Shown: positions 928-62,575 of the stretch, in pieces
Numbering within the stretch: the stretch's first letter is position 1
How the letters are laid out: the number at the start of each line of letters is the position of its first letter
Source: an uncultured bacterium
Lineage (GTDB): Bacteria > Auribacterota > Erginobacteria > Erginobacterales > Erginobacteraceae
Length of the DNA: 64,000 nt
Reading direction: 5' to 3'
Assembly (NCBI GenBank): GCA_964587835.1
Contig: CAZPMN010000003.1
Location: 76,565 to 140,564, forward strand
The notes under the pieces: model-generated
The model's database searches: none
Told to the model about the DNA's origin: nothing
The model's input: only the letters and a program-made list of their open reading frames with translations
Position numbers and translations under genes: made by a program

Positions 928-1482
928 ATGAGAAATTTGACCTTCATAGCCCTATCTCTCCCAATGATTCTCTTCGCCCGACCGCCGTTTGCCGCCGGGC
1001 AACCCAGGGAGAGAAGGGAGAGAAACCTGGTCCGGGTGCCGGGCCTTGCCATCAGCGAGACCGTCACCGTCCCCGGGTTCTGGCGCCCCCGCTACCGGGC
1101 GGGGTATCGCTGGGTCCGGGCGGCCCGCGACGACGTCGGACGCTGGCACGGGGGATACTGGGAACCGCTCCATCGCGAGAAAGAAGAGCAGGTTACCGTC
1201 CCCGGTTATTGGGGCCCGCCCGGCCGCCTGGGCTATATCCGGATCACGACCCAGGACCGGCCCGGGGATTACCTGGCCGGTTCCTGGGAACTGATGAACT
1301 CCTTTGAGATCCGACGGACGCCCCGGGAGTGGGTCCCCGGCTACTGGAATCGAAGGAGATGGGTCCCCGGCTACTGGCGCCAACCGGAGAAAGAGGGTTA
1401 TATCTGGGTGGGAGGCTACTACCGGACGGACGGGCGCTGGCAGGAAGCTCGCTGGGAACCGGCGCCGGATGGCAAGGGTTAG
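928..1482 (+). CDS. secreted Trp/Tyr-rich repeat protein (repeated W-V-P-G-Y-W / G-Y-W motifs), function unknown
   Basis: ORF 721..1482. Internal Met at 928 begins a classic signal peptide (MRNLTFIALSLPMILFARPPFAAGQP). Mature part has repeated VPGFW/VPGYW/GYW...W motifs. Confidence 0.5.
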   Translation: MRNLTFIALSLPMILFARPPFAAGQPRERRERNLVRVPGLAISETVTVPGFWRPRYRAGYRWVRAARDDVGRWHGGYWEPLHREKEEQVTVPGYWGPPGRLGYIRITTQDRPGDYLAGSWELMNSFEIRRTPREWVPGYWNRRRWVPGYWRQPEKEGYIWVGGYYRTDGRWQEARWEPAPDGKG

Positions 1483-1811
1483 AGCAGCAGTCTCCAGACT
1501 ATCCAGGCGGCCGCCAACAGGCCGACCACACCCCCCCCGATCAGCAGCCTCCTCCGCCTGACCAGGTCGCTGCGGAACTTGGGATGAGCGATGGTCTGGA
1601 AGGATCCGGCGCTCAGATAACTGGCCAGCCTTTTCCCGTTGAGATCATCCTGATCATCCCCCTCCCGCTCGGCCGGAAGTCCGTAACCGGAGATCCGCCG
1701 GGCCCGCCGCTCCATCTTCTCCCGAGCCCGGATCTCTCGGGAAACCGCCTTTAGTTCCTGCTCCACTTCGGCGATCTGGAAATCCAGGTAACTTTTTCTC
1801 CCGATCCGCAT
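1479..1811 (-). CDS. hypothetical small protein with C-terminal transmembrane helix
   Basis: ORF 110 aa. Charged N-terminal part then hydrophobic tail LLIGGGVVGLLAAAWIVWRLLL. Confidence 0.35.
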   Translation of the reverse strand: MRIGRKSYLDFQIAEVEQELKAVSREIRAREKMERRARRISGYGLPAEREGDDQDDLNGKRLASYLSAGSFQTIAHPKFRSDLVRRRRLLIGGGVVGLLAAAWIVWRLLL

Positions 1812-1848
1812 AATCCGCTTATCCCGCGGTTATCTTACTGAACTCGGC

Positions 1849-2514
1849 TCACATTAACAGACCCACCAGCCGGATCAGCACCGCGACCACCAGAGCCAGC
1901 AGAGCCGCCGGGAGGAAAAAGAAGAACCCCTTCTTCAGCTGGTCGGCGGGACCGGAGTCGGGCGGGCCGGCCGGGACCACCGCCGCGGAACCCGGCCCAG
2001 GCTTGTTTTCTTCCAGACCCCGGGTGCTGAGGGCATCAACCCTACCCCGAGCCGCAGTGTATTCCCGCTTGGCCTTGGCGACCACGGCCAGGGCCCGGCT
2101 CAGTTCCCCCTTCAGGTCTTCTTCCCGCCAGGTTTCTTCCCGAATCCCCCTCACTTCGGAGATGATCTTTTCGAACTCCTCCCGGGTCGCCTTGACCATG
2201 GTATTGGTCCGGGTCAGCTCGCTCTCCTCCTTGTCCAGAATGGCGATCCCCCTCTCCAGGTTGGTCAGGGCTTCCCGCTTGAGAATGTCCAACTCTTCCC
2301 GCTGCCTCTTCAGTTCCTCGAGGTCGGCCTTCCGCCGGGTAAGTTCCTCCTGTTTCTTCTTGAGAAAGGATATGTTACCGGTGGTCTGGTCAACCATCTC
2401 GGTCAGGTTGTCGATCGGAGCTTTGCGCGGAATCTCCTCTTCGGCGGGCTTGGTTTCCGACGACGGCTTCGCCTCCGGCTTGACCCCTGCCCTCGTTTTC
2501 TCCTTCTCGCTCAT
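1849..2514 (-). CDS. coiled-coil protein with C-terminal membrane anchor (hypothetical)
   Basis: 221 aa. Long heptad-like charged region (EELTRRKADLEELKRQREELDILKRE...) and C-terminal TM (FFFLPAALLALVVAVLIRLVGLL). Confidence 0.5.
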   Translation of the reverse strand: MSEKEKTRAGVKPEAKPSSETKPAEEEIPRKAPIDNLTEMVDQTTGNISFLKKKQEELTRRKADLEELKRQREELDILKREALTNLERGIAILDKEESELTRTNTMVKATREEFEKIISEVRGIREETWREEDLKGELSRALAVVAKAKREYTAARGRVDALSTRGLEENKPGPGSAAVVPAGPPDSGPADQLKKGFFFFLPAALLALVVAVLIRLVGLLM

Positions 2515-2744
2515 ATCGTCATTCTCCCCTGGTCTTTGTCCTTTATCCGACGGAAATTACGGGGGTTGCCGCCTCCGAGCCGTCACCCCGAAGATTCCCC
2601 CGTCTGTCGATTTCTCTTTCCGGACCACCCTCCGGCGGATAATATCCTTCCCGCGTCAGATCTCCGTAACCGGCGGATGCCACGGTTCAAGGATAATAAG
2701 CCCCGTCCGGTCCACGGTCAACAAAACTCTCTCCGCTCCGGGAT

Positions 2745-3914
2745 ATGAAGCCAACCTCTTCCATCTGCCGCCATTTCGGGGATTGCGGTGGCTGCCAATT
2801 TCAGGATATTCCCTACCGAGTTCAGCTCCAGAGGAAGGAGGAGCGTTGCCGGGTTCTCCGGGACGAGGCCGGCGTGGCGACAGATGTCAGACCGATCATC
2901 CCCTCTCCGCAAATCTTCTACTACCGAAACAAGATGGAGTTCACCTTCGGCGCGGAGGAGGGCGGGGTGATCTGCGGTCTCCACCGCCGTGGGAGAAAAC
3001 GATCGATCCTCCCGGTCAAGGAATGCCTGATCTCCTTTCCCGAGACGGGAGTTATCCTGGAAGCAATTACCACCCTGGCCCGGCAAAGCGGCAGGCCCGC
3101 CTACGACCCCTACCGCCACCAGGGATTCTGGAGAAACCTGGTAATCCGGGAGGGCAAGTTCACCGGCGATCTCCTGATCAACCTGGTCACTTCTTCTTCC
3201 GGGGAACTGGACCAGGCCGGGTTGTTCTCCGCTCTCAACCGGGTTCTGCCGGAAGGGAGGATCACCTCCCTGATTCACACCGTCAACGACAGCATCTCCA
3301 ACGCCGTCATCCCCGAGCAATGGGAAGTCCTCCAGGGTAATCCCTTCCTGGAAGAGAGGATAGCCGGCCTGACCTTCCAGATTCCGCCCTTTTCTTTCTT
3401 CCAGGTCAATCCGGCGATGATGGAGATATTCTACCGGGAGCTGAAGGAAATACTCCGGCTGAGGGGCCGGGAGAGAATCCTCGACCTCTTCTCCGGGTGC
3501 GGCGCCATCGGGCTTGTCCTCTCCCGACCGGCCGATTCGATTCTCGGCATCGAGATCGAACCGGAGGCGGTACAGACCGCCTATCTCAACGCCCGGCGCA
3601 ACGGAATTGGCAACCTCTCGTTCCGCTCCGGGAAGGTGGCCCGGGTGCTGGCCGAGAACCGCGGAGATTGGCCGGGGAGGTTCGACCTGGTAATCGTCAA
3701 TCCGCCCCGCTCCGGGATCAGCAGTAAGATCGCCCGGCGGCTGTTGGAACTCGAGGCGGACCGAATCGTCTACTCTTCCTGCAACCCCGAGACCTTCTTT
3801 CCCCAGGTCGGGCTACTGGAAAGCCGGTACCGGCCGGTGGTCCTCCAACCATTCGACTTCTTCCCCCATACCCCGCACCTGGAAATGCTGGCGATATTCG
3901 AGAAGAAGGGTTAA
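2745..3914 (+). CDS. RumA/TrmA-family SAM-dependent RNA (uracil-C5)-methyltransferase with N-terminal Fe-S cysteine cluster; no TRAM domain
   Basis: N-terminus CRHFGDCGGCQFQ (RumA-type 4Fe-4S ligands). C-terminal methyltransferase motifs DLFSGCGAIG, FDLVIVNPPRSG, FDFFPHTPHLE. Confidence 0.8.
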   Translation: MKPTSSICRHFGDCGGCQFQDIPYRVQLQRKEERCRVLRDEAGVATDVRPIIPSPQIFYYRNKMEFTFGAEEGGVICGLHRRGRKRSILPVKECLISFPETGVILEAITTLARQSGRPAYDPYRHQGFWRNLVIREGKFTGDLLINLVTSSSGELDQAGLFSALNRVLPEGRITSLIHTVNDSISNAVIPEQWEVLQGNPFLEERIAGLTFQIPPFSFFQVNPAMMEIFYRELKEILRLRGRERILDLFSGCGAIGLVLSRPADSILGIEIEPEAVQTAYLNARRNGIGNLSFRSGKVARVLAENRGDWPGRFDLVIVNPPRSGISSKIARRLLELEADRIVYSSCNPETFFPQVGLLESRYRPVVLQPFDFFPHTPHLEMLAIFEKKG

Positions 3915-3980
3915 CCAAAAGACGCTTGATTCACATCTTGAAGTTAAGCTCAATCCATGCCTCGTACTCTTACGCTTAAT

Positions 3981-4058
3981 CGTACTCGTACTCGAGATCA
4001 AGCCGGGTTGGCGGACGAGTACGAGTAAGAGTAAGAGTAAGAGTAAGAGTAAGAGATA
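3981..4058. repeat. inverted repeat (CGTACTCGTACTCG ... CGAGTACGAGTA) fused to a (GAGTAA)n hexanucleotide microsatellite, 5-6 perfect units, ending ~10 nt upstream of the mpg start
   Basis: Read directly. gagtac then gagtaa x5 at ~4017-4052. The complementary arm cgtactcgtactcg is at 3981-3994. Confidence 0.8.
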
Positions 4059-4066
4059 GCGCAAAT

Positions 4067-4654
4067 TTGCAAAAGGTTATGAACAAGGAAACGATCCTCG
4101 ACCACGCTTTTTACCGTCGCTCCACGGTCCGGGTAGCCCGCGATCTGCTGGGCCAGATCCTGGTCAGGAAGATCAACGGGGAACTTCTCTCCGGCCGGAT
4201 CGTCGAAACCGAGGCCTATACCGGCCCCGGAGACCCGGCCTCTCACGCCGCCCGGGGCGCGACCCCCCGTTCAGCGATCATGTTCGGCCGGCCGGGACGT
4301 GCCTATGTCTACTTTTGTTACGGGATGCACCACCTGCTCAACGTGGTCACGGAGAGGGAGGGGACGGCCGGCGCGGTCCTGATCCGGGCCCTGGAACCGG
4401 GGGAAGGTCTTGCCCGGATGCTGAGGAACCGGGAGAGAAATAAACTCAGGGGACTCCTTGACGGACCGGGCAAGTTAACCCAGGCACTGAAGATCGGGCG
4501 GGAACTCAACGGCTGGGATTTGACCGGGGGAGGAGAACTCTATATCTTGGGGGGAACACCCCGGATCGGGGAAACCGTCATCGCCGGGCCCCGGATCGGG
4601 ATCAGAAGAGGCACGAAAAAACTCTGGCGGTTCCGCCTCCATCTTCCCTCCTGA
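4067..4654 (+). CDS. mpg: DNA-3-methyladenine glycosylase (Mpg/AAG family)
   Basis: [49 protein letters not shown] matches the Mpg family signature. Confidence 0.85.
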
Positions 4655-4673
4655 TTTCAACTCCGGTAACGCC

Positions 4674-5429
4674 TTAATCCCGCGCTCCCTCCAGGATCGG
4701 GATGATCTCGGTCAAACTGGTGACCTGGTAATCCGGAACCTTGATGTGCGCCTCCGGATCGAACCGGGCCTCCTCGACCTCCCTCTCCAGGGTCTCGATC
4801 AATTCCTGTCCGTCCTCCGCCGCCCGCTTCACCAGGAAGGTGGTCATTCCAGCCAGATTGCCCATCATCACGTCGGTCAGGCGATCACCGACCATCGCTG
4901 TTTCTTCCGCCTTCAGATCCAACTGCTCGAGAACGATCTCGGCGATCCGGGGGTTGGGTTTCTCCAGGTGCAGACGCAACGAGTCGTTCCAGTCGAAGAA
5001 ACCCTTCGGCCGGGGAACCCCAGCCTGCTGGGCAAAGGCTTCCATCACCACGTTCTTGGTGGTGAAGGTGGCCACCGCGAACTTGATCCCCTCCCGGTCG
5101 AGATAGTTTAAGATCTCAACCGCGTCGGGAAAGAGCCCGGCTTTCCCGGCCCGGGTATAAGCAATCCGCTCCCGTTCATCCACCACACCCTTTACCCTCT
5201 GGAATTCGTCCCAACTGGTCTTCAGTCCGATCGTCTCCAGTTTCTCGATGAATCCCTTCCCGGTATAGTAGGCGAGCATATACTCGTCTTCCTTTCCCTC
5301 GGGAACCGCGCCGCCGCACTCTTCCACTACCTTGATGAACACATCCCGCCAGTAGATTCTCGGGTTGGGATATACCTTGGCGATCGTGTTGTCGTTATCA
5401 AAAACTATACCCTTGAGCCTGACGGCCAT
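4674..5429 (-). CDS. HAD-superfamily hydrolase
   Basis: Motif I FDNDNT (DxDxT), motif IV VGDRLTDVMMGNLAGM. Confidence 0.75.
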   Translation of the reverse strand: MAVRLKGIVFDNDNTIAKVYPNPRIYWRDVFIKVVEECGGAVPEGKEDEYMLAYYTGKGFIEKLETIGLKTSWDEFQRVKGVVDERERIAYTRAGKAGLFPDAVEILNYLDREGIKFAVATFTTKNVVMEAFAQQAGVPRPKGFFDWNDSLRLHLEKPNPRIAEIVLEQLDLKAEETAMVGDRLTDVMMGNLAGMTTFLVKRAAEDGQELIETLEREVEEARFDPEAHIKVPDYQVTSLTEIIPILEGARD

Positions 5430-5487
5430 AACAACCTCCGGTTGATGATTTCTCCAAGTTTTGCTGTGCTCCCGGCTCGGCCCTGAA

Positions 5488-5514
5488 ACCCGGATACCGA
5501 TTACCGATCACCGA
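5488..5514. repeat. short heptamer tandem array CCGATTA/CCGATCA x3 directly downstream of the giant HEAT gene stop
   Basis: ggataccgattaccgatcaccgattaccg read directly. Same heptamer family as at 59326-59440. Confidence 0.6.
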
Positions 5515-8500
5515 TTACCGTCTGTCGATCTCGCTCCCGGGCGGCAACAGATTGCGCTTGATCTTGCGGATTGCCTCCGCCGCCGTCGCCCGAACGGTTT
5601 CGCTGTCATCTTGCAACAGTCCCCGGAGCGGTTCCTCCGCCTCCGGTTCCCCCAGCTCGCCGAGGGCCGCCGCGGCGACCCGGCGGACGCCGGAGTGACG
5701 CTCCCGGATCGCCTCCAAGAGCTGATCGACCGCCCGCAGGTCGCCGAGCTTGCCCAGGGACGCCGCCGCCCGGAACCGGACGGCAACCTCATCTTCCTTG
5801 AGGGCCAGCAACAACGGTTCCACCACGGTGCTGTCGCCGGATTCTCCCAAGGCCAGGGCGGCTTCGGCCCGGACCCCGACATCCGGATCGGCCAGAAGTT
5901 TGAGCAGAGGCTGGGCCGCCCGGGAGTCTTTCAACTTTCCCAGGGCAGCCGCTACCGCCCGGCGGACCCAGCAGTCCCGGTCTTCAGCAGCGGCGATCAG
6001 GGAATCAAGCCAGGCGGGATCGTTAAGCCGGCCCAGAACCGCGGCGGCGGTCGCCCGGACCCCACTTTCCCGATCTTGCAGACACCCGGCGACTGCCGGG
6101 CCCGCCCGGAGATCATCCAGTCGGCCCAAAATCAGAAGCGCGTTGTTCCGAACTGAGGCGGATTTGTCTTTTAAAGCCGCCATCAATGGTTCCACCGCAT
6201 CCTTTGATTGCAAGTCGCCCAGGGCCATCGTCGCGCTTACCCTGACCGCCTCGGCGGGATCCTTCAGCACCTCGATCAGGGCGGAGAGAGAAGAGGTATC
6301 CCCGATCTTGCCCAGGGCTTCGGCGGCGGAGGAGCGGACGGGAACGGCGGGATCCTGCAGGGCTTCAATCAGGGGGCCGGACGCACGCTGATCCGGAATC
6401 CGGGACAGGGCAAGGGCGGCCGCCTGTTTCACCGCATCGGATTCATCCTTCAGGGACTCGATCAGTGGCTCGATCCCCTGCGGGCTCTTCAGTTGCCCCA
6501 GGGAATCGGCCGCCGCCCGCCTGACCCAGGACTCCTCATCCCGCAAGGCCTCCACCAGGGGAGCGACCACCCGGGCATCCCCGATCCGGCCCAGCGCGAC
6601 CGCGGCCGCCCGTCGCAGTTCCCGGTCCGGATCCTGGAGTTTATCCAGCAGGGGATCCACCGCGCGACCCGATCCGACTTTCTCCAGGGAGGAAACCGCC
6701 GCCAGGCGGACATCAGTCTGATCGTCCTCCAGCATCCCGATCAGGTGATCCAGCGCCCGCTCGCCGCCGATCGCGCCCAGGGCGGAAACCGCCGCCTCCC
6801 GAACCTCGGTCGTCGGATCGGAAAGAACTTCAATCAGGGCCTCGAGGGCCTGTTCGTCGCCGATCGCGCCTAGGGCGGTGCACGCCCGGCACCGGATCTC
6901 CCGATCGGGGTCCTTCAGGACGGCGATCAGGGGTTCGATCGCCCGGGGATCGCGGAGGCGAATCAGCAGCTGAACCGCGATCTTTCTGGTTTCCGGATCC
7001 TCTTCCGACAAAGCCGCCAACAGGGATTCCGCCGCTCCCCGGTTGACTATATCCTCCAGGGCCCGGATCGCGATCTCCCGATCGAGGGCGGCATCTTCCT
7101 GCAGGGAACGCAGCACCTGGGGGACAACGGCGGAGGGCGACATCCGCCCCAGGGCCCGCGCCGCCGTCCGGCGGACCCAGATCTCCGGATCGTGGAGGGC
7201 CCTGACCAGCGGCCGGATCGCCGACTCGTCCCCGATCCGGCCCAGGGCGTCCGCCGCGGCCCGGCGGCCGGAAGGTCCCCCCTTCTCCAATTCTTCAATC
7301 AGAAGGATCACCGCCTTCTCCTCCTCCAAGCGGCCGAGCATAACGGCCGCGGTTCCCCGAACTGCGGAGGAATTGTCCTGAAGTGCTCGGATCAGGTGAC
7401 CGGCCACCGCTTCCCCGCCGAGGCGGCCCAGGGCGTCTACCGCGGCCCGGCGCACCCAGCTCTCGGGATCCTTAAGCGTTTCAACCAGTGGTTCCAGGGC
7501 CCGCCGGTCGCCCAGCATCCCCAACGCGTTAGCCGCCCGGCTCCGCACCCCCCGATTGGGATGGCGAAGAGACTCGAGCAGGGGGGGAACCGCTCTCACA
7601 TCCCCGATCCGACCCAGGGCGTCGATGACCTGCCGCTGGACCGGGGGATCGGGATCTTCCAGCAACTCCAGCAGTTTCGGCACCGCCTCGACCGCCTCCA
7701 TCTTTCCCAGGGTCTGGGCGGCGTTCGCCCGGACGGCGGTGTCCTGATCTTCCAGAGCGGCCAACAGGGTCTCGACCACCTTCCGGTTCTTGAAGGAAGC
7801 CAGCAGCTTGGCGGTCAGCTTGCGCACTTGCTGGTTGGCATCGTTCATAATCTCCATCAGCCGATCGACCATTTCTTCGTCCACCAGTTTCTCCAGAGCG
7901 CGGGCGGCCGCTCGGGCCACCTCCGGGTCGTCATCCCGGAGGGCGGAAATCACCGTCTCGGCGGCCCGGCGATTCCCGCTCTCTCCCAGGGAGTAAACCG
8001 CCGCCGCCCGTACGCCGGTTTCCGGATCGCCGGCGGCCTGGATCAAAGCCGGCACAACCCGGTCTTCCTGCACCCCACTCAGGGCCAGTACCGCCGCCCG
8101 CCGGACGTCCCGGTCCCGGTCCTGCAGGGCCCCGGTCAGTTCATCAACCACCCCCGTTCCTCCAATCCGCCCCAGAGCCCGGGCGGCTTCAACCCGGACC
8201 GGGGGAGCGTCGTAGAGAAGCGCCTCGGCCAACACTCCGATATCGTCGCTTTCGCCCACGGCTCCCAGAGCGGCGGCGGCGGCGACCCGTTCCTCCAGCA
8301 ATCCTTCCCGAAGGGTATCCAGGACTACCGGTCGGGCGGCCGGATCGGCGAACCTCTTGCAGGCCACCAGAATCCGGCGGCGGACAGAACCCGAAGCCGC
8401 CGGCATCAGATCAAGCAAAGGCTCCAGGGCCGAACGATCGCCGATCTCGGCCAGGGCGGATACGGTATTTTCCACCACCACCGGGAGAGGATCTTTCAGG

Positions 8501-10266
8501 GATTCGATCAACAAGGGAACCGCTTCCGCTCCGCCGATCCTTCCCAGAGATCGGGCGGCGGCGGCCCGGACTTCGTTGGCATCGTCTTTCAGGGCGGCGA
8601 GGAGAAGCGCGGTTGACTTCGGATTACCGATTGAACCAAGGGCCTCGGCCGCCGCCGCCCGGACCAGCGAAGACTCGTCGGTCAGGAGTTTCTCGAGCGG
8701 CTCCCGGGCCCTCCCGTCGGAGAGGCGCCCGAGGGCTCCGGCGGCCTTCTGTCTCACTTCTCGTTCCGGATCCCACAGAGCGGCGGCCAGCGGTTCCAGG
8801 GCCTCCGGAGAATCAAGCCGGCCCAGGGCCTCGGCAGCCGCCGACCTCACCTTGCGATCCTCGTCGCGAAGCAGCCGGATCAGGGGTCGAACCCCAGCTT
8901 CGTCTCCGGAACGCCCCAGGGCCCGGGCCGCCTGGGCCCGGATATCACTCTGCTCGTCGTCAAGCGCGGCCAGCAGAGAATTGATCGAACGGCTGGTACT
9001 CACCCTGCCAAGAAGCGAAAGAGCCAGGGCCCGGTCTTCCGGCTGGCCGGTATCGAGAATTTTCTGCAGGGGTTCCACCGCCCGTTCATCGACCAGGTCC
9101 TCGAGGATGCGATGGATGTGTTCTTTAACCGCGGCTTCCTGATCCCGGTGCAATTCGATCAGGGGCCCCACCGCGCGGGTATCTTTCAGGTCGCCGAGGG
9201 CGTCCAGGGCGCTGAGCTTCAATTCGGGATCTTCCTCCCGGAGGATCTGTAACAGGGGCTTGACCGCCCGGGGATCCCCGATCTTGCCCAGCGCGAAGGC
9301 GGCGGCCCGTCGGACGCCGGAATCGTCGTACCGGAGTGCCTGGAGCAGGGTGGGGACTGCAGCCCGCCCCCCGACCCGTTTCAATACCGACGAGGTCAGT
9401 TCCCGGATTCGCTCCGCCTCAATTTCTTCCGGGCTCGGCGCGGCCGCCGGTTTCTCATCCGCCGGTTTAGCCTCCTCAAGGTTAAAATCTTCCTCCGGGG
9501 CCTCTTCCGCAATCGTAATTTCTTCCAGAACTTCCGGGGCGGCTTCAATCTTCTGCGCTTCCCCGGCCAGCAGGGTGGAGATCAGGGGATCCACTGCTTC
9601 ATCGGCTCCGATCTCTCCCAGGGCCAGGGCAGCGCTGATCCGGACCTGCGGTTCCTTGTCCTTGAGAGTTCCCACCAGCGGCCGGACCGCCTTCTCCGCG
9701 TGGAGTGCGCCCAGGGCGGAGGCGGCGGCGGCGCGAACGGAGGAGGAGGTATCCTGAAGGGCTTCAACCAGGGGGGGAGTCGCGCGGGAAGAACCTATCC
9801 GGCCCAGGGCCAGGGCCGCGCTGGATCTGACCTCTTCTTTTTCCTCCCCGCCCAGCAAAGCGATCAGCGGCTCAACGGCTTCCTCGCCGCCGACCGCACC
9901 CAAGGCCAGCGTCACGGCCGACCGGACCCGGAGATCCTCATCGGCAACGGCCTGCCGGAGCGCGGGAAACGCCTCCTGGTCTCCGATGACTTCCAGGGCG
10001 GCGGCGGACGCCCGGCGAACTTCCGGCTCCTTATCCCGCAACAGGGCGGTTACCGGACCTACCGCCCGGTGATCACCTATCTCCCCCAGGGCGCGGACGG
10101 CCGCCGCCCGAACGTCGGTTTCCCCGGCGGAGAGCAGTTCGAGAAGCGGGGCCACGGCCCGAGGGTTACCGATCTCACCCAGGGTCTCCGCCGAGAGAAC
10201 CCGGATTTCGGGAGAGGGATTACCCAGGGCGGCGATCAGGGTTTCAATGTCATCTTTCAGGCTCAT
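5515..10266 (-). CDS. giant HEAT-repeat protein (PBS-lyase/E-Z type HEAT-like repeats, ~50 tandem ~31-aa units), 1583 aa
   Basis: Uninterrupted ORF. Nearly every ~31 aa repeats VRxxAAxALGxIGDxRAVxPLIxxLxDxDxxVR. One acidic low-complexity linker (EAAPEVLEEITIAEEAPEEDFNLEEAKPADEKPAAAPSPEEIEAER). No signal peptide, no other domain. Confidence 0.85.
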   Translation of the reverse strand: MSLKDDIETLIAALGNPSPEIRVLSAETLGEIGNPRAVAPLLELLSAGETDVRAAAVRALGEIGDHRAVGPVTALLRDKEPEVRRASAAALEVIGDQEAFPALRQAVADEDLRVRSAVTLALGAVGGEEAVEPLIALLGGEEKEEVRSSAALALGRIGSSRATPPLVEALQDTSSSVRAAAASALGALHAEKAVRPLVGTLKDKEPQVRISAALALGEIGADEAVDPLISTLLAGEAQKIEAAPEVLEEITIAEEAPEEDFNLEEAKPADEKPAAAPSPEEIEAERIRELTSSVLKRVGGRAAVPTLLQALRYDDSGVRRAAAFALGKIGDPRAVKPLLQILREEDPELKLSALDALGDLKDTRAVGPLIELHRDQEAAVKEHIHRILEDLVDERAVEPLQKILDTGQPEDRALALSLLGRVSTSRSINSLLAALDDEQSDIRAQAARALGRSGDEAGVRPLIRLLRDEDRKVRSAAAEALGRLDSPEALEPLAAALWDPEREVRQKAAGALGRLSDGRAREPLEKLLTDESSLVRAAAAEALGSIGNPKSTALLLAALKDDANEVRAAAARSLGRIGGAEAVPLLIESLKDPLPVVVENTVSALAEIGDRSALEPLLDLMPAASGSVRRRILVACKRFADPAARPVVLDTLREGLLEERVAAAAALGAVGESDDIGVLAEALLYDAPPVRVEAARALGRIGGTGVVDELTGALQDRDRDVRRAAVLALSGVQEDRVVPALIQAAGDPETGVRAAAVYSLGESGNRRAAETVISALRDDDPEVARAAARALEKLVDEEMVDRLMEIMNDANQQVRKLTAKLLASFKNRKVVETLLAALEDQDTAVRANAAQTLGKMEAVEAVPKLLELLEDPDPPVQRQVIDALGRIGDVRAVPPLLESLRHPNRGVRSRAANALGMLGDRRALEPLVETLKDPESWVRRAAVDALGRLGGEAVAGHLIRALQDNSSAVRGTAAVMLGRLEEEKAVILLIEELEKGGPSGRRAAADALGRIGDESAIRPLVRALHDPEIWVRRTAARALGRMSPSAVVPQVLRSLQEDAALDREIAIRALEDIVNRGAAESLLAALSEEDPETRKIAVQLLIRLRDPRAIEPLIAVLKDPDREIRCRACTALGAIGDEQALEALIEVLSDPTTEVREAAVSALGAIGGERALDHLIGMLEDDQTDVRLAAVSSLEKVGSGRAVDPLLDKLQDPDRELRRAAAVALGRIGDARVVAPLVEALRDEESWVRRAAADSLGQLKSPQGIEPLIESLKDESDAVKQAAALALSRIPDQRASGPLIEALQDPAVPVRSSAAEALGKIGDTSSLSALIEVLKDPAEAVRVSATMALGDLQSKDAVEPLMAALKDKSASVRNNALLILGRLDDLRAGPAVAGCLQDRESGVRATAAAVLGRLNDPAWLDSLIAAAEDRDCWVRRAVAAALGKLKDSRAAQPLLKLLADPDVGVRAEAALALGESGDSTVVEPLLLALKEDEVAVRFRAAASLGKLGDLRAVDQLLEAIRERHSGVRRVAAAALGELGEPEAEEPLRGLLQDDSETVRATAAEAIRKIKRNLLPPGSEIDRR

Positions 10267-10485
10267 CCGGAATTGATTGTGCCCGTCGCGGTTCGGGAGG
10301 CGAACGATAACAAACCCATCATAACATCGCGGGCCTTTCGGGGGAACAGAAAATAACCGCCGGATAAGTCACTCCGGGAATAAAAACATTGTTGAATTCC
10401 GTCCGGGCCAATATATTCATAAGAGATCGCACAACCTAAAGGGGGACTGCCCCGCTGATGCGCCGGTACAGCTAGCAGACCGGCA

Positions 10486-11304
10486 GTGACGCTGATGCCT
10501 ATCTCATTCATCTACTGGACAACTTCCCCGGAACTGTGCCAGATCGGTCCGGTTACTATCCGCTGGTACGGCCTCCTCTTCGCCCTCGGTTTTTTCCTCG
10601 GCTACCTCCTCATCCAGAAAATCTTTCGCCGGGAGGGCGTCCCCGAGAACGACCTGGGGACATTGCTCCTTTACGTACTCGCCGGCGCCCTGATCGGGGC
10701 CCGGTTGGGCCATTGCCTTCTCTATGAACCCGCCTATTACCTCAAGCATCCGGAAGAGATCATCCTGGTCTGGCGGGGCGGACTGGCCAGCCACGGCGGC
10801 GCGGCGGGAATATTGATCGCCCTCTTCTTCTATACCCGCCACCGTCCGGCCCAATCATACCTCTGGCTGTTGGACCGGCTGGCGATCGCCGTGGCCCTGA
10901 GCGGGACTTTGATCCGGATCGGGAATCTCTTCAACTCCGAGATCATCGGAACCGCCAGCGACCTTCCCTGGGCCTTTGTCTTCCCTCGTTCCGGAATCTC
11001 TCCGACGGTACCCCGCCACCCGGCCATGCTCTACGAAGCCGCCGCCTACCTTCTGATCTTCTTCCTCCTTTTGATTATCTACCGCCGCCAGGGCCGCCGG
11101 GTCCCTCCCGGGGAACTGATCGGACTCTTCCTGCTCACCGCCTTCACTGCCCGGTTCTTCATTGAATATGTTAAGGTTCCCCAGGCGTCCTACCGGCTCC
11201 CCTTTCCCTTGCGCGTCGGCCAGCTGCTGAGCCTCCCCGCCGTCGCCGCCGGGTTCATCCTTCTGGCGAACAGCCGAAGACGATCGCTGATAAAACGGAA
11301 GTAG
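10486..11304 (+). CDS. lgt: prolipoprotein diacylglyceryl transferase
   Basis: IRWYGLLFALGF, GGLASHGGAAG, PRHPAMLYEAAAY. Collinear with E. coli Lgt motifs. Confidence 0.9.
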   Translation: MTLMPISFIYWTTSPELCQIGPVTIRWYGLLFALGFFLGYLLIQKIFRREGVPENDLGTLLLYVLAGALIGARLGHCLLYEPAYYLKHPEEIILVWRGGLASHGGAAGILIALFFYTRHRPAQSYLWLLDRLAIAVALSGTLIRIGNLFNSEIIGTASDLPWAFVFPRSGISPTVPRHPAMLYEAAAYLLIFFLLLIIYRRQGRRVPPGELIGLFLLTAFTARFFIEYVKVPQASYRLPFPLRVGQLLSLPAVAAGFILLANSRRRSLIKRK

Positions 11305-11305
11305 G

Positions 11306-12100
11306 ATGATGGAAGCCTCAGCTCCCTTCGGAGATGTCGGTATCCGGACCGGAAGGGGTGATTACCGGTCGCCTCCGCGAACACCGGGCTGGCTGGCCCG
11401 GCGTTTCCCGACCGCGGTCTTTTATCTGAAGTTGCTTTGGATTGTCGGTGCGGCCGGCCGGACGGCTCAGCGGCGTGATTACCACGGCCAGGATTGGATC
11501 CGGGACAGTCAGAGGACCCTCAAGGCGCTGGAATCGGTCGGGGTCCGGATTACGGTCGAGGGGACTGACAGCTTCATCCGACTGGAAGCGCCCGCCGTCT
11601 TCGCGGCTAATCATATGAGTATCCTGGAGACTTTTGTTCTCCCCTCGATAATCCGTCCCCACCGGAGGGTCACCTTCGTAACCAAGAAGGAGCTTCTCGA
11701 TTACCCGTTCTTCGGCCCGGTTTTGGCCAGCCGCCGCCCGATCGTCGTCTCCCGGCGGGATCCCCGCCGGGATCTCCAGACCGTCCTGGAGAAAGGCGCT
11801 GATCGCCTCCGGAAGGGAATCTCGGTCATCGTCTTTCCCCAGAATACCCGAATGGCGGTTTTTGACCCCGACCGGTTCAACTCGCTGGGGGTGAAACTGG
11901 CCCGGCGGGCCGGGGCACCCTTGATTCCGATCGCCCTCCAAACGAATGCCTGGGGAACCGGGAAGTGGCTCAAGGACTTTGGCAGAATCTCGCCCGCCAT
12001 ACCGGTCCGGATAGTCTTCGGAACTCCAATCATGGTCCGGGGCGGGGGGCGGGAGGCCCAGTCCGGGCTGATCGACTTTATCTCCCGGCGGCTGGGGTGA
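11306..12100 (+). CDS. lysophospholipid (1-acyl-glycerol-3-phosphate) acyltransferase family protein, PlsC-like
   Basis: Acyltransferase motif region AANHMSILETF (HX4-type block), FVTKKEL, PIVVSRRD, VIVFPQNTR. Immediately follows lgt with a 1-nt gap. Confidence 0.7.
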   Translation: MMEASAPFGDVGIRTGRGDYRSPPRTPGWLARRFPTAVFYLKLLWIVGAAGRTAQRRDYHGQDWIRDSQRTLKALESVGVRITVEGTDSFIRLEAPAVFAANHMSILETFVLPSIIRPHRRVTFVTKKELLDYPFFGPVLASRRPIVVSRRDPRRDLQTVLEKGADRLRKGISVIVFPQNTRMAVFDPDRFNSLGVKLARRAGAPLIPIALQTNAWGTGKWLKDFGRISPAIPVRIVFGTPIMVRGGGREAQSGLIDFISRRLG

Positions 12101-12109
12101 AGTGGTCGG

Positions 12110-12409
12110 TCACAACCAGGAAAACCAGCCCAGATCAAAGATCTCCGACACCGTACCCAGGGCGAGCACGGTGACGTAAGCAATCAAGAGGACCATTCCG
12201 ACGGCCGGACCGTGTTTCTTGAAAAAAGGAAATTCCGAGCGGAAGAGGCAGTAAGCCAAGCCGACAATCCAGAGCAAGAGCGAGATCACCAGCAGACACT
12301 TCTGGGCCAGACTGTACGGTGGGAAGATCCGGGAGAGTCCCCAGAGTCCGCCGAAAATCAGAACCAACAGGATCAAGAAGATCTCCCCGTGGCGGCGTAG
12401 ATAGGTCAT
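12110..12409 (-). CDS. small integral membrane protein (3 predicted TM), hypothetical
   Basis: 99 aa, three hydrophobic segments. Confidence 0.45.
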   Translation of the reverse strand: MTYLRRHGEIFLILLVLIFGGLWGLSRIFPPYSLAQKCLLVISLLLWIVGLAYCLFRSEFPFFKKHGPAVGMVLLIAYVTVLALGTVSEIFDLGWFSWL

Positions 12410-12423
12410 CGTAGCCTCCCTAG

Positions 12424-13455
12424 TTATTTCCTGAGCCGGACTGTTACTTCGACCGTGGCGTCCACCCGGAGGTCGATATTCCGGCCCGGGAGGAACTTTT
12501 CCAGACCAATCCGAATATCCAGTTTCTGTTCCAGTCGCGAAGTGCTGGAAATCACCCGGCCCGCCGGCAGGTCAAAACGGGTCGTCCCGCTCAGCTGGTG
12601 GGAAGATGCAAGCAGGCCGGCCCTCCCCTCTCGCTCTTCGTCCGAAATTTCCTGCCGGAAACTTCCGGTGGTATCGAGCAGGGCTATCTCCCGTTGCGGC
12701 CCGGAGCGATCGCGCAGGGTGGTCTCAAGTTGGATCGACCATTCTTCGCCCTGGTCCCAGTCCCGGTCGATCCCCGGCCCCGGGATTTCCAGGGTCCTCG
12801 ACCAGGATGTCCCGAGCGGGACAGGCTGGAGGGGAAACTCGGGCTGCATCCGTTCCAGGAATGAATCAAATTGGAGCGACGGGAAGAGACGCTCAGGGGC
12901 TTCGGGAACCCGGGCCATCAGAATCGTTCCCCGGCTGTTGACCTGAAATTCAAATTCTTCCCCGACCACCCCCCGGAGGGGGAAATCGTCATCTTCCCCG
13001 GCTACCTCCCTGGTGACTCGGCCTGCTTCCGAGACGAGAAGTTTCCGGTCGGTCAGGTGCACGGATATTTCCCGATTATGAACGGCACTGACCGTGGTCA
13101 GGTCAAAATCCCGGTAGCTGAGTAACAGTTTGGCCTCTCCGTCCGGAAAAACCTGGTCGACCCGGAATCGCATCAGATAGCTTCCCTCCAACCGGACCGG
13201 GAGGCCGATCCGGTCTTCCTCGGCGTCTTCCCGGCCGTAAGTCATCGTCACCTCCCCCTCTCCCCGCAGGGCAACCTCATAGGTAATTTCCTCGCCCGGC
13301 CGGAATTTGTAACGCAAAAGAACGGTTTCCGGCGGCGGGCGGCGGCACCCGGCGGGAAGGCAGATCAGGATGAGCATCCCCAGGCGAAGAATTCCGGACA
13401 GGCGCGGACCAGCCCGCCGAGCGGGTCTCAAGCCGGAATCAAAACGGGAGGTCAC
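12424..13455 (-). CDS. putative lipoprotein, hypothetical
   Basis: N-terminus LGMLILICLPAGC resembles a signal peptide with lipobox cysteine. No recognisable catalytic motifs. Confidence 0.55.
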   Translation of the reverse strand: MTSRFDSGLRPARRAGPRLSGILRLGMLILICLPAGCRRPPPETVLLRYKFRPGEEITYEVALRGEGEVTMTYGREDAEEDRIGLPVRLEGSYLMRFRVDQVFPDGEAKLLLSYRDFDLTTVSAVHNREISVHLTDRKLLVSEAGRVTREVAGEDDDFPLRGVVGEEFEFQVNSRGTILMARVPEAPERLFPSLQFDSFLERMQPEFPLQPVPLGTSWSRTLEIPGPGIDRDWDQGEEWSIQLETTLRDRSGPQREIALLDTTGSFRQEISDEEREGRAGLLASSHQLSGTTRFDLPAGRVISSTSRLEQKLDIRIGLEKFLPGRNIDLRVDATVEVTVRLRK

Positions 13456-18187: not shown

Positions 18188-18204
18188 CTCGGACGGAAAA
18201 AATG

Positions 18205-18380
18205 AACCGCAGAGAACACAGAGAAATTTTCACCGCAAAGACGCAAAGAACGCAAAGAGATTTGTAGTTATTTTACTCCGAGAGGAATACTGATACCGGG
18301 TTACTACCAATATTGAACCAGCCTGTGGTTACCAAATTGAAACGCTTATCTTCCTTTGCGTTCTTTGCGTCTTTGCGGTG
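18205..18380. repeat. intergenic inverted-repeat element A. 27-bp perfect arms CACCGCAAAGACGCAAAGAACGCAAAG, each a triplet of CGCAAAG heptamers, flank a ~95-bp AT-rich core. A partial third copy sits upstream.
   Basis: Read directly. Left arm 18231-18257, right arm (reverse complement) 18354-18380. ccgcagagaacacagagaa at 18207-18225. Confidence 0.8.
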
Positions 18381-18414
18381 ATGACTTTTTTGGGACGTCC
18401 TTGGGTGAATTCTT

Positions 18415-22104: not shown

Positions 22105-22149
22105 AGTATCGGGGTTTTTGTCCGCGGGCGATCAGGCTCACTTCTTCCC

Positions 22150-22185
22150 GCCCACCGCTTACCGCTCACTGCTTACCGCTTACTA
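22150..22185. repeat. heptamer array (CCGCTTA / CCGCTCA / CTGCTTA) between hypA and hypB
   Basis: cccaccgcttaccgctcactgcttaccgcttact read directly. Related to the arrays at 59326-59440. Confidence 0.55.
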
Positions 22186-35671: not shown

Positions 35672-36658
35672 TCAGCCGCCGAGGTCATTCCGGTTAAACT
35701 TCACCCGCTTCCGCCAGTATTCAAGGATCGCCCTCAGCGTATCTTCGATTCCGTGTTCCGGCCGCCAGCCGGTAGCTTCCGAAAACCGGGTGTGATCCCC
35801 CTGAAAGATCGGAACCTCGGTCTTCCGCATCCTCTCCTCGGCGACCCGAACCTCGATCTTCGACTTGCTGAGCGCCAGCAACCGGTCGAGAATTTCCCGG
35901 ATCGGGTAGGCCTGCCCGGAACAGATATTGTAGATCCCCCCGGGTTCGCACCGGTCGACCGCCAGACAATAACCCCGGACCATATCCCGGACATCGGTGA
36001 AGTCCCGGGCCGGGGTGAGGTCACCGACCTCCAGGACCGGTGGCTGTACTCCCCGTTCGATCCGGGCGATCTGGAGGGCGAAAGAGGCGGTGACGAAACG
36101 GGGCCGCTGACCGGGACCGATGTGGTTAAAGGGGCGAAGCACGACCGCGTCCAGTCCCCGGTTCCGGAAATAGTAGGCGGCGGTCTGCTCGGCGCAGAGC
36201 TTGGTCAGTCCGTAGATCGAGGCGGGGCGGAGGGGGTGGTCCTCGGCGAGAGGCATCTCTTCCGGCCGGGCCTTGCCGTAAACCTCGGCCGAGCTGACCA
36301 GGATCAGCCGGACCCGTTTGGCGAGGTCGGCGGCGGCCTCGAAAACGTTCAGGCTGCCCTTGATATTGGTCTCAAAGGCCAGCTGGGGGTCGGACTGGGC
36401 CATTGGGATATGGGTGGTTCCGGCCAGGTGGAAGATCGCGTCCGGGCGGAATTTCTCAATCACCCTCCCCAGTTCCCTCACCGCCAGGATGTCGCATTCC
36501 TCCACCCTGACCCGGTTGAGGAGGAAGATGGGGTGGTCGAAGACAGCGCCGTGACGCTCGATCCCGATCACTTCCCACCCCGCCTCGACCAGGGACCAGG
36601 CCAGATGCCCCCCGGCAAAGCCGGCAATCCCGGTTATCAGCGCCTTGCGCATTTTCAA
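35672..36658 (-). CDS. rmd: NAD-dependent epimerase/dehydratase, GDP-4-keto-6-deoxy-D-mannose reductase (Rmd)-like
   Basis: ALITGIAGFAGGHLA Rossmann motif, YxxxK (YGLTKLCAE). Located next to gmd as in GDP-D-rhamnose clusters. Confidence 0.65.
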   Translation of the reverse strand: MKMRKALITGIAGFAGGHLAWSLVEAGWEVIGIERHGAVFDHPIFLLNRVRVEECDILAVRELGRVIEKFRPDAIFHLAGTTHIPMAQSDPQLAFETNIKGSLNVFEAAADLAKRVRLILVSSAEVYGKARPEEMPLAEDHPLRPASIYGLTKLCAEQTAAYYFRNRGLDAVVLRPFNHIGPGQRPRFVTASFALQIARIERGVQPPVLEVGDLTPARDFTDVRDMVRGYCLAVDRCEPGGIYNICSGQAYPIREILDRLLALSKSKIEVRVAEERMRKTEVPIFQGDHTRFSEATGWRPEHGIEDTLRAILEYWRKRVKFNRNDLGG

Positions 36659-36660
36659 AC

Positions 36661-36840
36661 CACTAATTACACTAATTAACTTGCATTATCCCCCCACCTC
36701 GCCCCCTTTGAAGTCCACTAATTACACGAATTATCACTAATTTTATTTAGAATCCCCCACCTCACCCCCTTTCAGTCCACAGATTACACTGATTACTCAG
36801 ATCAGTTCCCCCTGCCCACTGCCTACTCCCCACTGCCCAA
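36661..36840. repeat. repeat-rich intergenic region between gmd and rmd. ~40-bp direct repeat x2 (ATCCCCCACCTCGCCCCCTTTGAAGTCCACTAATTACAC), plus CACTAATTACAC and CACTGCC sub-repeats.
   Basis: Read directly at 36688-36727 and 36747-36785. Confidence 0.7.
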
Positions 36841-51737: not shown

Positions 51738-51761
51738 TACCTTTCCCGGTCGGGCTGTTTT

Positions 51762-51930
51762 GAACCGCAGAGAACGCAAAGAACGCGAAGAGAAGTTAAT
51801 TTTTAATTTTCAATCGGTGTTGTTCCTCAAAAGTAAGCCACCACCATTCCACCGCACCTCTTTTTAGATCGTTTTCATCTCCTGATTTAATTTCCCGGAC
51901 CCTCGGCGTCCTCTGCGTTCTCTGCGGTTC
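51762..51930. repeat. intergenic inverted-repeat element B. Arms GAACCGCAGAGAACGCAAAGAACGCGAAGAG and its inverted copy ...CTCTGCGTTCTCTGCGGTTC flank an AT-rich core. Same heptamer-triplet family as element A.
   Basis: Read directly. Left arm 51762-51792, right arm 51911-51930. Confidence 0.75.
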
Positions 51931-52627
51931 ATTGTTTCTTCGGGAAGAGCGAGCGAAAGAGGAGGCGGATGAACCGGAGCGTATCCCGGCCGGGCCGGAT
52001 CCGGGAAACCTCGCCGGCGTAGATCGTCCGGATCGGGACGGAAGAAATCCCGAAACCCCGCCGTCCCGCCTCGATCAATATCTCCGATTCGGTGTCGTAG
52101 TTGCCGGTGGAGAAGGAAAGCATTTGGATCACCTCCGCGGTGAGCAGGCGAAAGCCGCACTGGCTGTCTGGAACCTTCTGGCCGATCAGCCGGGAAAGGA
52201 TGGCGGACATCGTCCGGTTGGTCCAGTAACGCACCTTCGGCATCGACTCCGCCGTCGCCATCCGGTTGCCGACCACGATCGCGGCAGAGCTCGAGCGGGC
52301 CACGGCCAGGAAGGCCGGGATCTCGGCCGGATCGTGCTGGCCATCGCCGTCGACGATGATCACCGGATCACAACCCCGCGCCACCAGGGCCCGGAGACCG
52401 GTCTCCAGCGCCCTTCCCTTCCCCCGATTGACCGGGTGACGGATCACCTCCGCCCCGGCCGCCGCGGCCGACGCCCCGGTCCGGTCGGTGGAGCCGTCGT
52501 CAAGGACCAGAATTCGGTCGGCATATTTCGTCGCTTCCTTCACCACCGCCCCCACCGATGCTTCCTCGTTGAAGGCCGGGATCAGAATCCCGACCTGATT
52601 TTTCCCGTTATTGACCATGGCTCCCAT
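51929..52627 (-). CDS. family 2 glycosyltransferase
   Basis: ILIPAFNEE, LVLDDGSTD, DGDGQHD (DxD). Start at internal Met (MGAMVNNG). Confidence 0.75.
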   Translation of the reverse strand: MGAMVNNGKNQVGILIPAFNEEASVGAVVKEATKYADRILVLDDGSTDRTGASAAAAGAEVIRHPVNRGKGRALETGLRALVARGCDPVIIVDGDGQHDPAEIPAFLAVARSSSAAIVVGNRMATAESMPKVRYWTNRTMSAILSRLIGQKVPDSQCGFRLLTAEVIQMLSFSTGNYDTESEILIEAGRRGFGISSVPIRTIYAGEVSRIRPGRDTLRFIRLLFRSLFPKKQ

Positions 52628-59325: not shown

Positions 59326-59440
59326 GACTAAGTAATCAGTAGTCAGTAATCAGTAATCGGTAATCGGTCAGGCGACTGCTCACTGCTCACTGCTCACCGC
59401 TTACTGCTCACTGATCACTGATTACCGATTACTGCTTACC
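59326..59440. repeat. palindromic heptamer-array region. (GTAATCA/GTAATCG)x5 then (CTGCTCA/CCGCTTA)x6, then the inverted copy (CTGATTACCGATTACTG)
   Basis: Read directly. CAGTAATCGGTAATCGG and CCGATTACCGATTACTG are exact reverse complements. Confidence 0.75.
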
Positions 59441-60459
59441 CCCCCTCCCCCCCTACCCCCGCCGGAGGCCAGGAAGTAAATGAAGAGGCTTCCCCCCAGG
59501 ATACCGCTGACCACTCCCACCGGCAGTTCGGCCGGCGCCCGGACGGTTCGGGCGATCAGGTCGCAGAAGACCAGGAAAGTCCCGCCGGCCAGGAAAGAGG
59601 CCGGGAGGGTGAACCGGTGGTCGTTGCCGAGAAAGAGCCGGACGACGTGGGGGACTACCAGGCCGACAAAACCGATCACCCCGGCCGCCGCCACTGCCGT
59701 TCCGGCCAGGATCGACCCGAGAAAGAAGAGCTGGCGCTGGGCCCGGCCAAGCCTCACCCCAAGACCGGCCGCACCCTCCTCCCCCAGTTCCAGGGCGTTC
59801 AGGGTCCAGGCCCGGGTCAGGGCGGCCGCGGAGCCGAGCAGGATAACCGGTCCGGCGATCCAGAGCAGGGCCGGGTCGGCCCCGTCCAGGGACCCCATCG
59901 TCCAGTAGATGACCGCCCGGAAACGCCCCAGGTCGGCCACCGAGAGCAGGAGCATAATCAGGGCGGAGGAGATGAAAGAGATCATCACCCCGATCAGGAG
60001 CAGGTAGGGGATGTGAAGGAAGCGGCGGCGGCGGGCGATGGCGTAAGCTGTCGTAACCGCCAGCCAGGCCCCGGTAAAGCCGAGCAGCGGGAGAGCGAAG
60101 CGGGGGAGGGCCGGCCCGATGATGAACCCGAGGCTGATCCCCAGGGCCGCCCCGCCGGAGACCCCCAGGGTGTAAGGCTCGACCAGGGGGTTGCGGAAGA
60201 GCCCCTGGAAGAGCACCCCGGCCACCGCCAGTCCGCCGCCGACGATCAGCCCCAGAACCACCCGGGGAAGGCGGAGGCGGAGGATGACCACGGAATGGAG
60301 GGACTCCTCTCCCCCCCCGAGGACGGCGGAGCGAAGAACCCGGCAGACCTCCCCGGGGGAGAAGGAGACGGCCCCGACGGAGAGGGCCAGGCCGGAGACG
60401 ACGGCCAAAGCCGCCAGGAGGGAGAGAAAGAAGACCGCCGGGCGGACGGGTCTCTTCAC
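59422..60459 (-). CDS. ABC transporter permease, FecCD/BtuC family
   Basis: ~10 TM. The Gly-rich C-terminal tail is encoded by the adjacent repeat and may be an artefactual extension. Confidence 0.85.
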   Translation of the reverse strand: MKRPVRPAVFFLSLLAALAVVSGLALSVGAVSFSPGEVCRVLRSAVLGGGEESLHSVVILRLRLPRVVLGLIVGGGLAVAGVLFQGLFRNPLVEPYTLGVSGGAALGISLGFIIGPALPRFALPLLGFTGAWLAVTTAYAIARRRRFLHIPYLLLIGVMISFISSALIMLLLSVADLGRFRAVIYWTMGSLDGADPALLWIAGPVILLGSAAALTRAWTLNALELGEEGAAGLGVRLGRAQRQLFFLGSILAGTAVAAAGVIGFVGLVVPHVVRLFLGNDHRFTLPASFLAGGTFLVFCDLIARTVRAPAELPVGVVSGILGGSLFIYFLASGGGRGGGGVSSNR

Positions 60460-62327: not shown

Positions 62328-62483
62328 GAAACTCTTCCTGGGATCAGCTTGAGCCCGGATAACGTCCCGGCCCCGGAGTCCGGCCGCCGCCGACTGTGGG
62401 GAAAGTTTGGGCGGGTTATTTCATTCCGCGTGGGCTTGGCCAGCCAGTCATTGCGAGGAAACCCGAAATCTTTCGGGCCGACC

Positions 62484-62575
62484 AAGCAATCTCACCTCCC
62501 CGATCATTGCCAGTCCAGAGGACGAAGCAATCTCACCCCCCGGTCATTGCCAGTCCAAAGGACGAAGCAATCTCG
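62484..62575. repeat. tandem ~41-bp direct repeat, 2.3 copies (AAGCAATCTCACCYCCCSGRTCATTGCCAGTCCARAGGACG)
   Basis: Read directly. No unique spacers between copies. Preceded by palindrome CCCGAAATCTTTCGGG. Confidence 0.8.

Follow-up and report, generated by a model that had tools for sequence, protein, structure and literature searches.

Two operon-spacer palindromes as probable gene-less members of a heptamer-array family associated with GxxExxY nuclease genes

The stretch of DNA analysed here (hereafter the window, 64 kb in length) carries two intergenic elements whose arms are short inverted arrays of the heptamer CGCAAAG or close variants of it. Copy A lies between the stop of an ABC_ATPase gene and the start of cutA, and copy B between the stop of a glycosyltransferase gene and the start of pcm; as a first-pass annotation of the sequence had recorded, the two genes that border each element are both encoded on the minus strand. 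The features of the two loci, none of which is assigned to a strand, are the following.

18204–18226, no strand: outer arm of copy A on the side of cutA (TGAACCGCAGAGAACACAGAGAA), the end of an older element
18231–18257, no strand: inner arm of copy A (CACCGCAAAGACGCAAAGAACGCAAAG), which reads CAC followed by CGCAAAG-A-CGCAAAG-AA-CGCAAAG
18258–18353, no strand: variable core of copy A, 96 nt, 39% GC
18354–18380, no strand: second inner arm of copy A (CTTTGCGTTCTTTGCGTCTTTGCGGTG), a perfect complement of 18231–18257
18385–18409, no strand: putative degenerate outer arm of copy A (CTTTTTTGGGACGTCCTTGGGTGAA), adjoining the ABC_ATPase stop
51761–51792, no strand: arm of copy B (TGAACCGCAGAGAACGCAAAGAACGCGAAGAG), ending 24 nt before the pcm start codon
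51793–51899, no strand: variable core of copy B, 107 nt, AT-rich and unrelated to the core of copy A
51900–51931, no strand: second arm of copy B (CCCTCGGCGTCCTCTGCGTTCTCTGCGGTTCA), its final three bases forming the TGA stop of the minus-strand glycosyltransferase gene

For copy A, the annotation had described two perfect inverted arms of 27 nt, each with three CGCAAAG units, and this design was confirmed (18231–18257 and 18354–18380). The heptamers start 8 and 9 nt apart, as had also been reported, and the accompanying remark that such spacing corresponds to about one helical turn was inaccurate because a period of 8–9 nt falls short of the 10.5-bp turn. The core, annotated as AT-rich and roughly 95 bp long, is indeed 96 nt with 39% GC compared to 66% in the flanks, and we recognised neither an ORF nor an RNA family within it. 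The partial third arm noted upstream is real as well (TGAACCGCAGAGAACACAGAGAA at 18204–18226) and fits better as an arm belonging to an older, outer element. When the sense strand of the locus is folded as RNA (–75.8 kcal/mol, z = –7.8), this outer arm pairs with 18385–18409 and the inner arms pair with each other, outer with outer and inner with inner. Locus A therefore consists of one element inside what is left of another. In the Logan assembly of the source sample, a break falls within arm A, as expected because the arm is a repeat.

Copy B had been described as a second copy with the same arms and a different core. The statement about the core stands, given that the cores of A and B do not align, and the statement about the arms does not: those of copy B are variants that mix CGCAGAG, CGCAAAG, and CGCGAAG units and carry a TGAACC end. 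They are 92% complementary over 26 nt, and the sense strand folds with –69.2 kcal/mol (z = –4.8). With respect to their ends, the inner arms of copy A read CACC...GGTG, and both the outer arms of copy A and the arms of copy B read TGAACC...GGTTCA.

We scanned one genome per species for the pattern CCGCRRAG-N1-2-CGCRRAG-N1-2-CGCRRAG and obtained at least 120 matches; viral contigs yielded at least 120 matches to the triple-heptamer pattern. The genomic matches listed come from more than 10 phyla, including Chloroflexota, Acidobacteriota, Cyanobacteria, Planctomycetota, and Verrucomicrobiota, with Bacteroidota, Pseudomonadota, Thermodesulfobacteriota, and NC10 among the further taxa listed, and most of them form +/– pairs 6–150 nt apart. 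The annotation had proposed a scan of this one genome, and the heptamer arrays form a family that reaches beyond it and spans many phyla. Its alternative, ordinary gene-specific operators, is ruled out by the presence of the same arms beside unrelated genes in at least 240 genomic and viral stretches. The search pattern also catches unrelated tandem arrays: three viral contigs of 180–270 kb (L231, L263, and L274) contain long unbroken runs of the 9-mer CTTTGCGGA/G, which probably encode an amino-acid repeat and would not be element arms.

Across the family, an arm consists of a (T)TCACC, TGAACC, or TTAACC end followed by two to five CRCRRAG units, usually three, with a period of 8–9 nt. Within the unit, variation is confined to positions 2, 4, and 5, which are either A or G; positions 1, 3, 6, and 7 are fixed. 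The array is followed by a variable core of low GC (10–19 percentage points under the flanks in the mean) and then by the inverted array, such that the purine-rich array is 5' on either strand; the opposite outward ends read GGTGA(A), GGTTCA, or GGTTAA. The spacing between arms is trimodal, with classes of 6–60, 60–170, and 370–550 nt, and the window copies belong to the middle class. Cores are mostly unrelated among copies, in line with the different cores first noted for A and B. An all-against-all BLAST of 69 cores detected no similarity except between one pair on the same contig, which rules out a common small RNA or peptide in the cores. Arms also occur alone. The viral contig L273, for instance, has eight solo arms in one orientation over 13 kb (1124–13080), several of them followed by GGTTAAATCCTTTCCGTTCCC and then a start codon, and solo arms may have a context of their own.

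Arm pairs of the 370–550 nt class almost always enclose a GxxExxY gene (PF13366, a PD-(D/E)XK nuclease). An intact GxxExxY ORF lies within 35 of the 39 pairs spaced 300–700 nt apart, and in three further pairs the gene is frameshifted or on the other strand. Among the genomes selected by the pattern, pairs 370–520 nt apart in L061, L092, and L057 (frameshifted in the last) enclose the gene, and the enclosed product is assigned to PF13366 with E = 2e-43 and to TIGR04256 with E = 2e-45. We also worked in the reverse direction, taking 80 GxxExxY loci from metagenomes and checking their flanks for arrays. A heptamer array lies no more than about 200 nt away at 79 of the 80 loci, and the canonical inverted arrangement, upstream plus downstream, is present at 52. 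Arrays of at least three units are 30 times denser near GxxExxY than far away from it (3.3 vs 0.11 per kb). When 7-mers were counted independently of the pattern, the commonest upstream of the gene were CACAGAG, CGCAGAG, CACGAAG, CACGGAG, and CACAAAG, and the commonest downstream were the complements of this set; the CGCAAAG arms of the window are one flavour of this GxxExxY-flanking motif. Heptamer type tracks the similarity of the GxxExxY proteins weakly (0.64 vs 0.61 identity).

GxxExxY is the sole recurrent cargo of the heptamer-array family. No DDE transposase was seen between arms, and the long members that share the ends encode the PD-(D/E)XK protein. Both window copies have the array structure of the family, with at least two to three CRCRRAG units, inverted and with a period of 8–9 nt, and we consider it very likely that both loci are gene-less members of the heptamer-array/GxxExxY palindromic family. 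Decayed GxxExxY genes are ruled out as the origin of their cores, as hmmsearch of six-frame translations detected no GxxExxY remnant in either one (E > 0.8).

The arrangement around the gene is not uniform. Some GxxExxY genes (at L158 and L203) have a complete small hairpin element on each side and do not sit in one loop, which suggests that elements cluster or insert beside one another. In one GxxExxY clade (P0125–P0240), the called proteins have RRDAETQR at the N terminus and SSASLRLCGE at the C terminus, and these are the translated left and right arms; either the ORF truly runs through the arms, or gene callers over-extend it.

The GxxExxY family comprises at least 8000 matching sequence clusters at E ≤ 1e-10. 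An AlphaFold model of the protein (pLDDT 78.6) has generic PD-(D/E)XK nucleases as its closest solved folds (E ≥ 0.03), with alkaline exonuclease, Cas4 SSO0001, and the domain of the homing endonuclease I-Bth0305I among the matches, and a search by sequence found no relative in the PDB. Plasmids were rejected as vehicles, as GxxExxY occurs in just 8 of 72,556 plasmid records. Genes of the 'four-helix-bundle / 23S rRNA intervening-sequence' kind may offer a parallel to the system. A survey of the PD-(D/E)XK superfamily lists the function of GxxExxY as unknown and reports multiple transfers between divisions (PMC3424549). Our literature searches with family names and characteristic arm strings, made in an incomplete library, found neither the arms nor GxxExxY biology described; the link between arms and GxxExxY therefore appears, tentatively and within the limits of that library, to be new.

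Related genomes allow the same spacers to be compared. Three species carry an element between ABC_ATPase and cutA. In L122, where the flanking protein is 82% identical, the structure is nested as in the window and includes an extra arm (CTCTGCGTTCTTTGCGGTTCA). Its arm is identical to the window arm at 27 of 27 positions, and its core aligns with core A in the 3' part only; arms are conserved while cores drift. The element of L123 (79% identical) has arms of the TGAACC type around an unrelated core. A further locus lies upstream of dtd, where a 70% relative (L124) has a solo arm identical at 26 of 26 positions to the window arm at 18354–18380; at this site L123 retains a one-heptamer remnant and the window has nothing. 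The glycosyltransferase–pcm spacer carries a full element in the window and a reduced one in L328 (88%), in which the arm abuts the gene end, and no arms are present there in L327 (89%) or L329 (79%). The same spacer of L327 contains a perfect 25-nt palindrome starting with GTAG (9806–9878; GTAGCACAGGCATTCTTGCCTGTGG ... inverted), which looks like a GTAG-headed REP.

The clearest case of copying comes from the viral contig L236, in which two gene-less copies 2.8 kb apart (7865–7973 and 10693–10801) align through arms and core, including 47 nt of core at 85% identity. The homology starts with TTCACC and ends with GGTG(A/G)AA, and the flanks are unrelated. This duplication of a whole element with sharp ends provides direct evidence that the entire unit can be copied. 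The duplicates have no target-site duplication, and the short flanking duplications that the annotation had raised were likewise lacking in 116 pairs (2-nt matches in 17 of the 116, and one 4-nt match). Its idea of a MITE-like or REP-like element was thus supported by gain and loss at orthologous sites and by one clean duplication, and not by target-site duplications. Taken together, copies of the family come and go at orthologous spacers, and in at least some cases the unit is copied whole with no target duplication. In the lineage of the window, we see no sign of recent movement because the two copies have different arms and cores and are kept in relatives.

An IS110-family RNA-guided transposase gene (366 aa, NF033542 with E = 5e-58) lies at 5590–7085 of L122. 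It separates heptamer 1 from heptamer 2 in the left arm of the element orthologous to copy A. IS110-family elements also insert into REP sequences, and the arms may be a preferred IS110 target, like REP sequences for some IS110 members.

Several explanations that dispense with a nuclease have to be weighed. An intergenic hairpin could in principle be an inverted repeat that arose by chance or an ordinary intrinsic terminator, and one weak terminator-like match overlaps the end of arm B on the non-coding strand. Chance is countered by the triple-heptamer pattern, which has 3 matches in the window vs 0 in 100 shuffles, and a 16-mer pattern is found there 8 times vs 0.85 expected; the single heptamer CGCAAAG is not enriched in the window (9 observed vs 6.7 expected). 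As for a terminator, the annotation had judged that the element is not a simple one, rightly so: the hairpin is preceded by T runs and followed by A runs, opposite to the order at a terminator, the sense strand of either copy has no 3' U tract past the stem, and the loops, at 96 and 107 nt, greatly exceed those of a terminator. When both loci were scanned for promoters and terminators, no promoter and no convincing terminator emerged. Rfam 15 at gathering score matched tRNAs alone in the window and nothing at either element, and permissive thresholds added sub-threshold eukaryotic snoRNA/lncRNA noise. Because the arm sequence moreover recurs at hundreds of unrelated loci, we give chance or a terminator a negligible probability. 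The arms could also form an array of binding sites in duplex DNA for a host protein, such as a nucleoid-associated protein or global regulator, with the heptamer as the site, which is the 'paired iteron' idea of the annotation; the low-GC core would then be a bendable or promoter-like segment controlling the downstream gene. The heptamers are conserved as units while the 1–2 nt spacers vary, the unit has its fixed positions (1, 3, 6, 7) and its A/G positions (2, 4, 5), and arms end 19–30 nt before start codons at several loci, all of which would suit such a protein. However, no common theme links the genes next to the arms at hundreds of loci in many phyla, neither core has a sigma-70-like promoter, and the outer ends of solo arms face gene ends in 94 cases vs gene starts in 50. 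Nor is a host factor common to such distant phyla evident, and GxxExxY alone travels with the arms. What remains of the binding-site proposal is that each heptamer behaves as a motif in its own right, for a factor that would serve the whole family and not for a regulator of the local genes, and we regard an array for a host protein as improbable.

A host-selected RNA element is also unlikely, in our estimation, and has more to be set in its favour. In this view, RNase III would process the operon hairpin, or the hairpin would stabilise the 3' end of the upstream cistron; expression of ABC_ATPase would thereby be uncoupled from that of cutA, and expression of the glycosyltransferase from that of pcm, an effect that REP and Correia elements can have. 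The genes around each copy are co-oriented, both copies occupy the spacer to within about 24 nt of the downstream start, both give the strong sense-strand folds described above, and copy A is kept at one spacer in three species. If pairing were selected, a heptamer should match its partner better than it matches the other heptamers of the opposite arm. Pairing partners had an identity of 0.402, non-partners one of 0.398, and heptamers of the same arm one of 0.481, so that no partner-specific covariation between arms was found beyond element-level similarity. This indicates that the heptamers serve chiefly as repeated motifs for recognition, with the hairpin a consequence of their inverted layout. 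Nor do the arm mismatches of gene-bearing cassettes have a strand bias (40 G.U-compatible on the sense strand, 41 on the antisense strand, and 70 transversions). Where gene-less elements lie between co-oriented genes, 48 arm mismatches are G.U on the sense strand vs 29 that are A.C, and the window's lineage (copy B, L123, and L122) has 11 vs 2, as an RNA element would have it; the 48:29 bias is suggestive, but transcription-linked C-to-T mutation could explain it equally well. Convergent spacers hold 14 of 36 elements vs a background of 19%, based on crude gene calls; this speaks for the RNA reading, but it is also the pattern of any element tolerated at gene ends. Arms also occur in divergent and convergent spacers and as solo copies, no Rfam family covers them, and the link to one protein family would be left unexplained.

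We return to the reading in which the window copies are gene-less, non-autonomous family members and the family is a nuclease-associated selfish element analogous to REPIN–RAYT, to which, taken as a whole, we assign a probability of roughly 0.55. Under this reading, the heptamer arrays would be cis sites recognised by the GxxExxY nuclease, and the nuclease would move or copy the gene-bearing elements and, in trans, the gene-less ones. Dispersal of gene-less copies by GxxExxY would parallel the dispersal of REPINs by the RAYT transposase. We rate the nuclease-dependent step, by which GxxExxY would mobilise the elements, at somewhat short of an even chance. The window copies would be passengers, probably neutral, in two operon spacers, where, co-transcribed with its neighbours, copy A would form a hairpin of 27 bp and copy B one of about 30 bp; an effect on mRNA processing or stability is possible as a side effect.

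Several observations count against the nuclease-associated reading, among them the merely generic folds matched by the protein model, the weak tracking of protein similarity by heptamer type, and the lack of signs of recent movement in the window's lineage. No GxxExxY gene was found by tblastn in the 64-kb window nor in the contigs of its relatives, and none is present in 1 Mb of arm-bearing viral contigs; a source acting in trans within this genome is accordingly hypothetical. Element density in relatives is low, at 0–1 per roughly 20 kb. Finally, unrelated cores, even on one contig, are unusual for copy-and-paste elements.

A bolder version, which we hold tentatively and think more doubtful than not, is that arrays and GxxExxY together constitute an undescribed class of selfish element, whose sole protein, a PD-(D/E)XK nuclease of about 125 residues, would recognise CRCRRAG arrays and home or move without target duplication. 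Such a class would have spread across more than 10 bacterial phyla and into viral contigs, and its gene-less hairpins would be either REPIN-like non-autonomous forms or vacant landing sites. If the link holds, PF13366/TIGR04256, currently annotated just as 'GxxExxY protein', would gain a testable role, and multi-phylum intergenic repeats that now go unannotated or mistranslated would gain an explanation. It would also, if true, be a second, independent association of nuclease and palindrome in the style of REPIN–RAYT, with another fold and another repeat design. In practical terms, the arms break short-read assemblies and place hairpins of 27–30 bp inside operons.

For REP/REPIN–RAYT we drew on Bertels and Rainey 2011 (PMC3116915) and Di Nocera 2013 (PMC3733652), the latter of which describes a GTAG or CGTC tetranucleotide head on a palindrome of 20–40 nt. 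The heptamer family resembles this system in that its units are short, extragenic, and palindromic, often arranged as inverted doublets with a spacer, in that they are dispersed between genes, lack target-site duplications, and are conserved beyond neutral DNA, and in that one small nuclease-type gene is itself bordered by the repeats. The L122 arm, like REP sequences, has taken an IS110 insertion. In contrast to REPs, which are single palindromes of 20–40 nt, the arms are arrays of 7-nt units, and the GTAG/CGTC head is absent from the family, whose ends are TTCACC, TGAACC, or TTAACC. The gene between the arms also differs: RAYTs are of the IS200/IS605 Y1 type, whereas PF13366/TIGR04256 has a PD-(D/E)XK fold, and GxxExxY, unlike RAYT, is multi-copy and sits inside the element. 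The family further departs from REP/REPIN in having highly variable cores and nearly one motif across many phyla.

Other classes of repeat share single features with the family. Like MITEs, which measure less than about 600 nt, its gene-less elements have terminal inverted repeats, no ORF, and a length of 60–220 nt, and lie between genes or nested in one another. Longer members of the family have the same ends and carry the PD-(D/E)XK gene, and no DDE transposase was seen between arms. Unlike MITEs, the elements have no target-site duplication, and copies within one genome mostly have different cores. The STRRs, said to go back to Mazel in 1990 and Elhai in 2008, are reportedly tandem 7-nt units in intergenic DNA of heterocystous cyanobacteria, in longer direct arrays. 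The heptamer family likewise consists of tandem 7-nt units, and some of its matches are in Nostoc, Brasilonema, and Microcoleus; to our knowledge, no STRRs have been described in which inverted triplets enclose a core or a nuclease gene, and their unit sequences differ. Correia (CREE) and ERIC/IRU elements are, as are the heptamer elements, bounded by inverted repeats, about 100–150 nt long, and co-transcribed into long RNA hairpins. They have conserved cores and narrow hosts (Neisseria and enterobacteria), and Correia elements duplicate a TA target; we know of none with an associated nuclease gene or heptamer-array arms. Compared by eye with integron attC sites (RYYYAAC/GTTRRRY), the family ends GGTGAA and GGTTCA are unlike GTTRRRY.

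Short tandem arrays are generally abundant between the genes of this genome, and several others lie in the window. At 3940–4060, an intergenic hairpin of tandem units has CTCGTA-type hexamers (3961–3994) facing GAGTAA/CGAGTA hexamers (4017–4055) across a loop of about 20 nt; its design principle is that of copies A and B with a different unit. Three direct copies of a module of roughly 60 nt occupy 36650–36840, each an array of 9-mers of the CACTAATTA or CACAGATTA type followed by the motif CCCCCACCTC(G/A)CCCCCTTT; arms similar to the CACAGATTA units occur in one GxxExxY cassette (L201). STRR-like intergenic heptamer arrays are found at 59331–59460 (AGTAATC), 22136–22184 (ACTGCTC/ACCGCTT), and 5495–5520 (TACCGAT), and a 40-nt unit is repeated 2.3 times with 92% identity (score 162) at 62480–62574.
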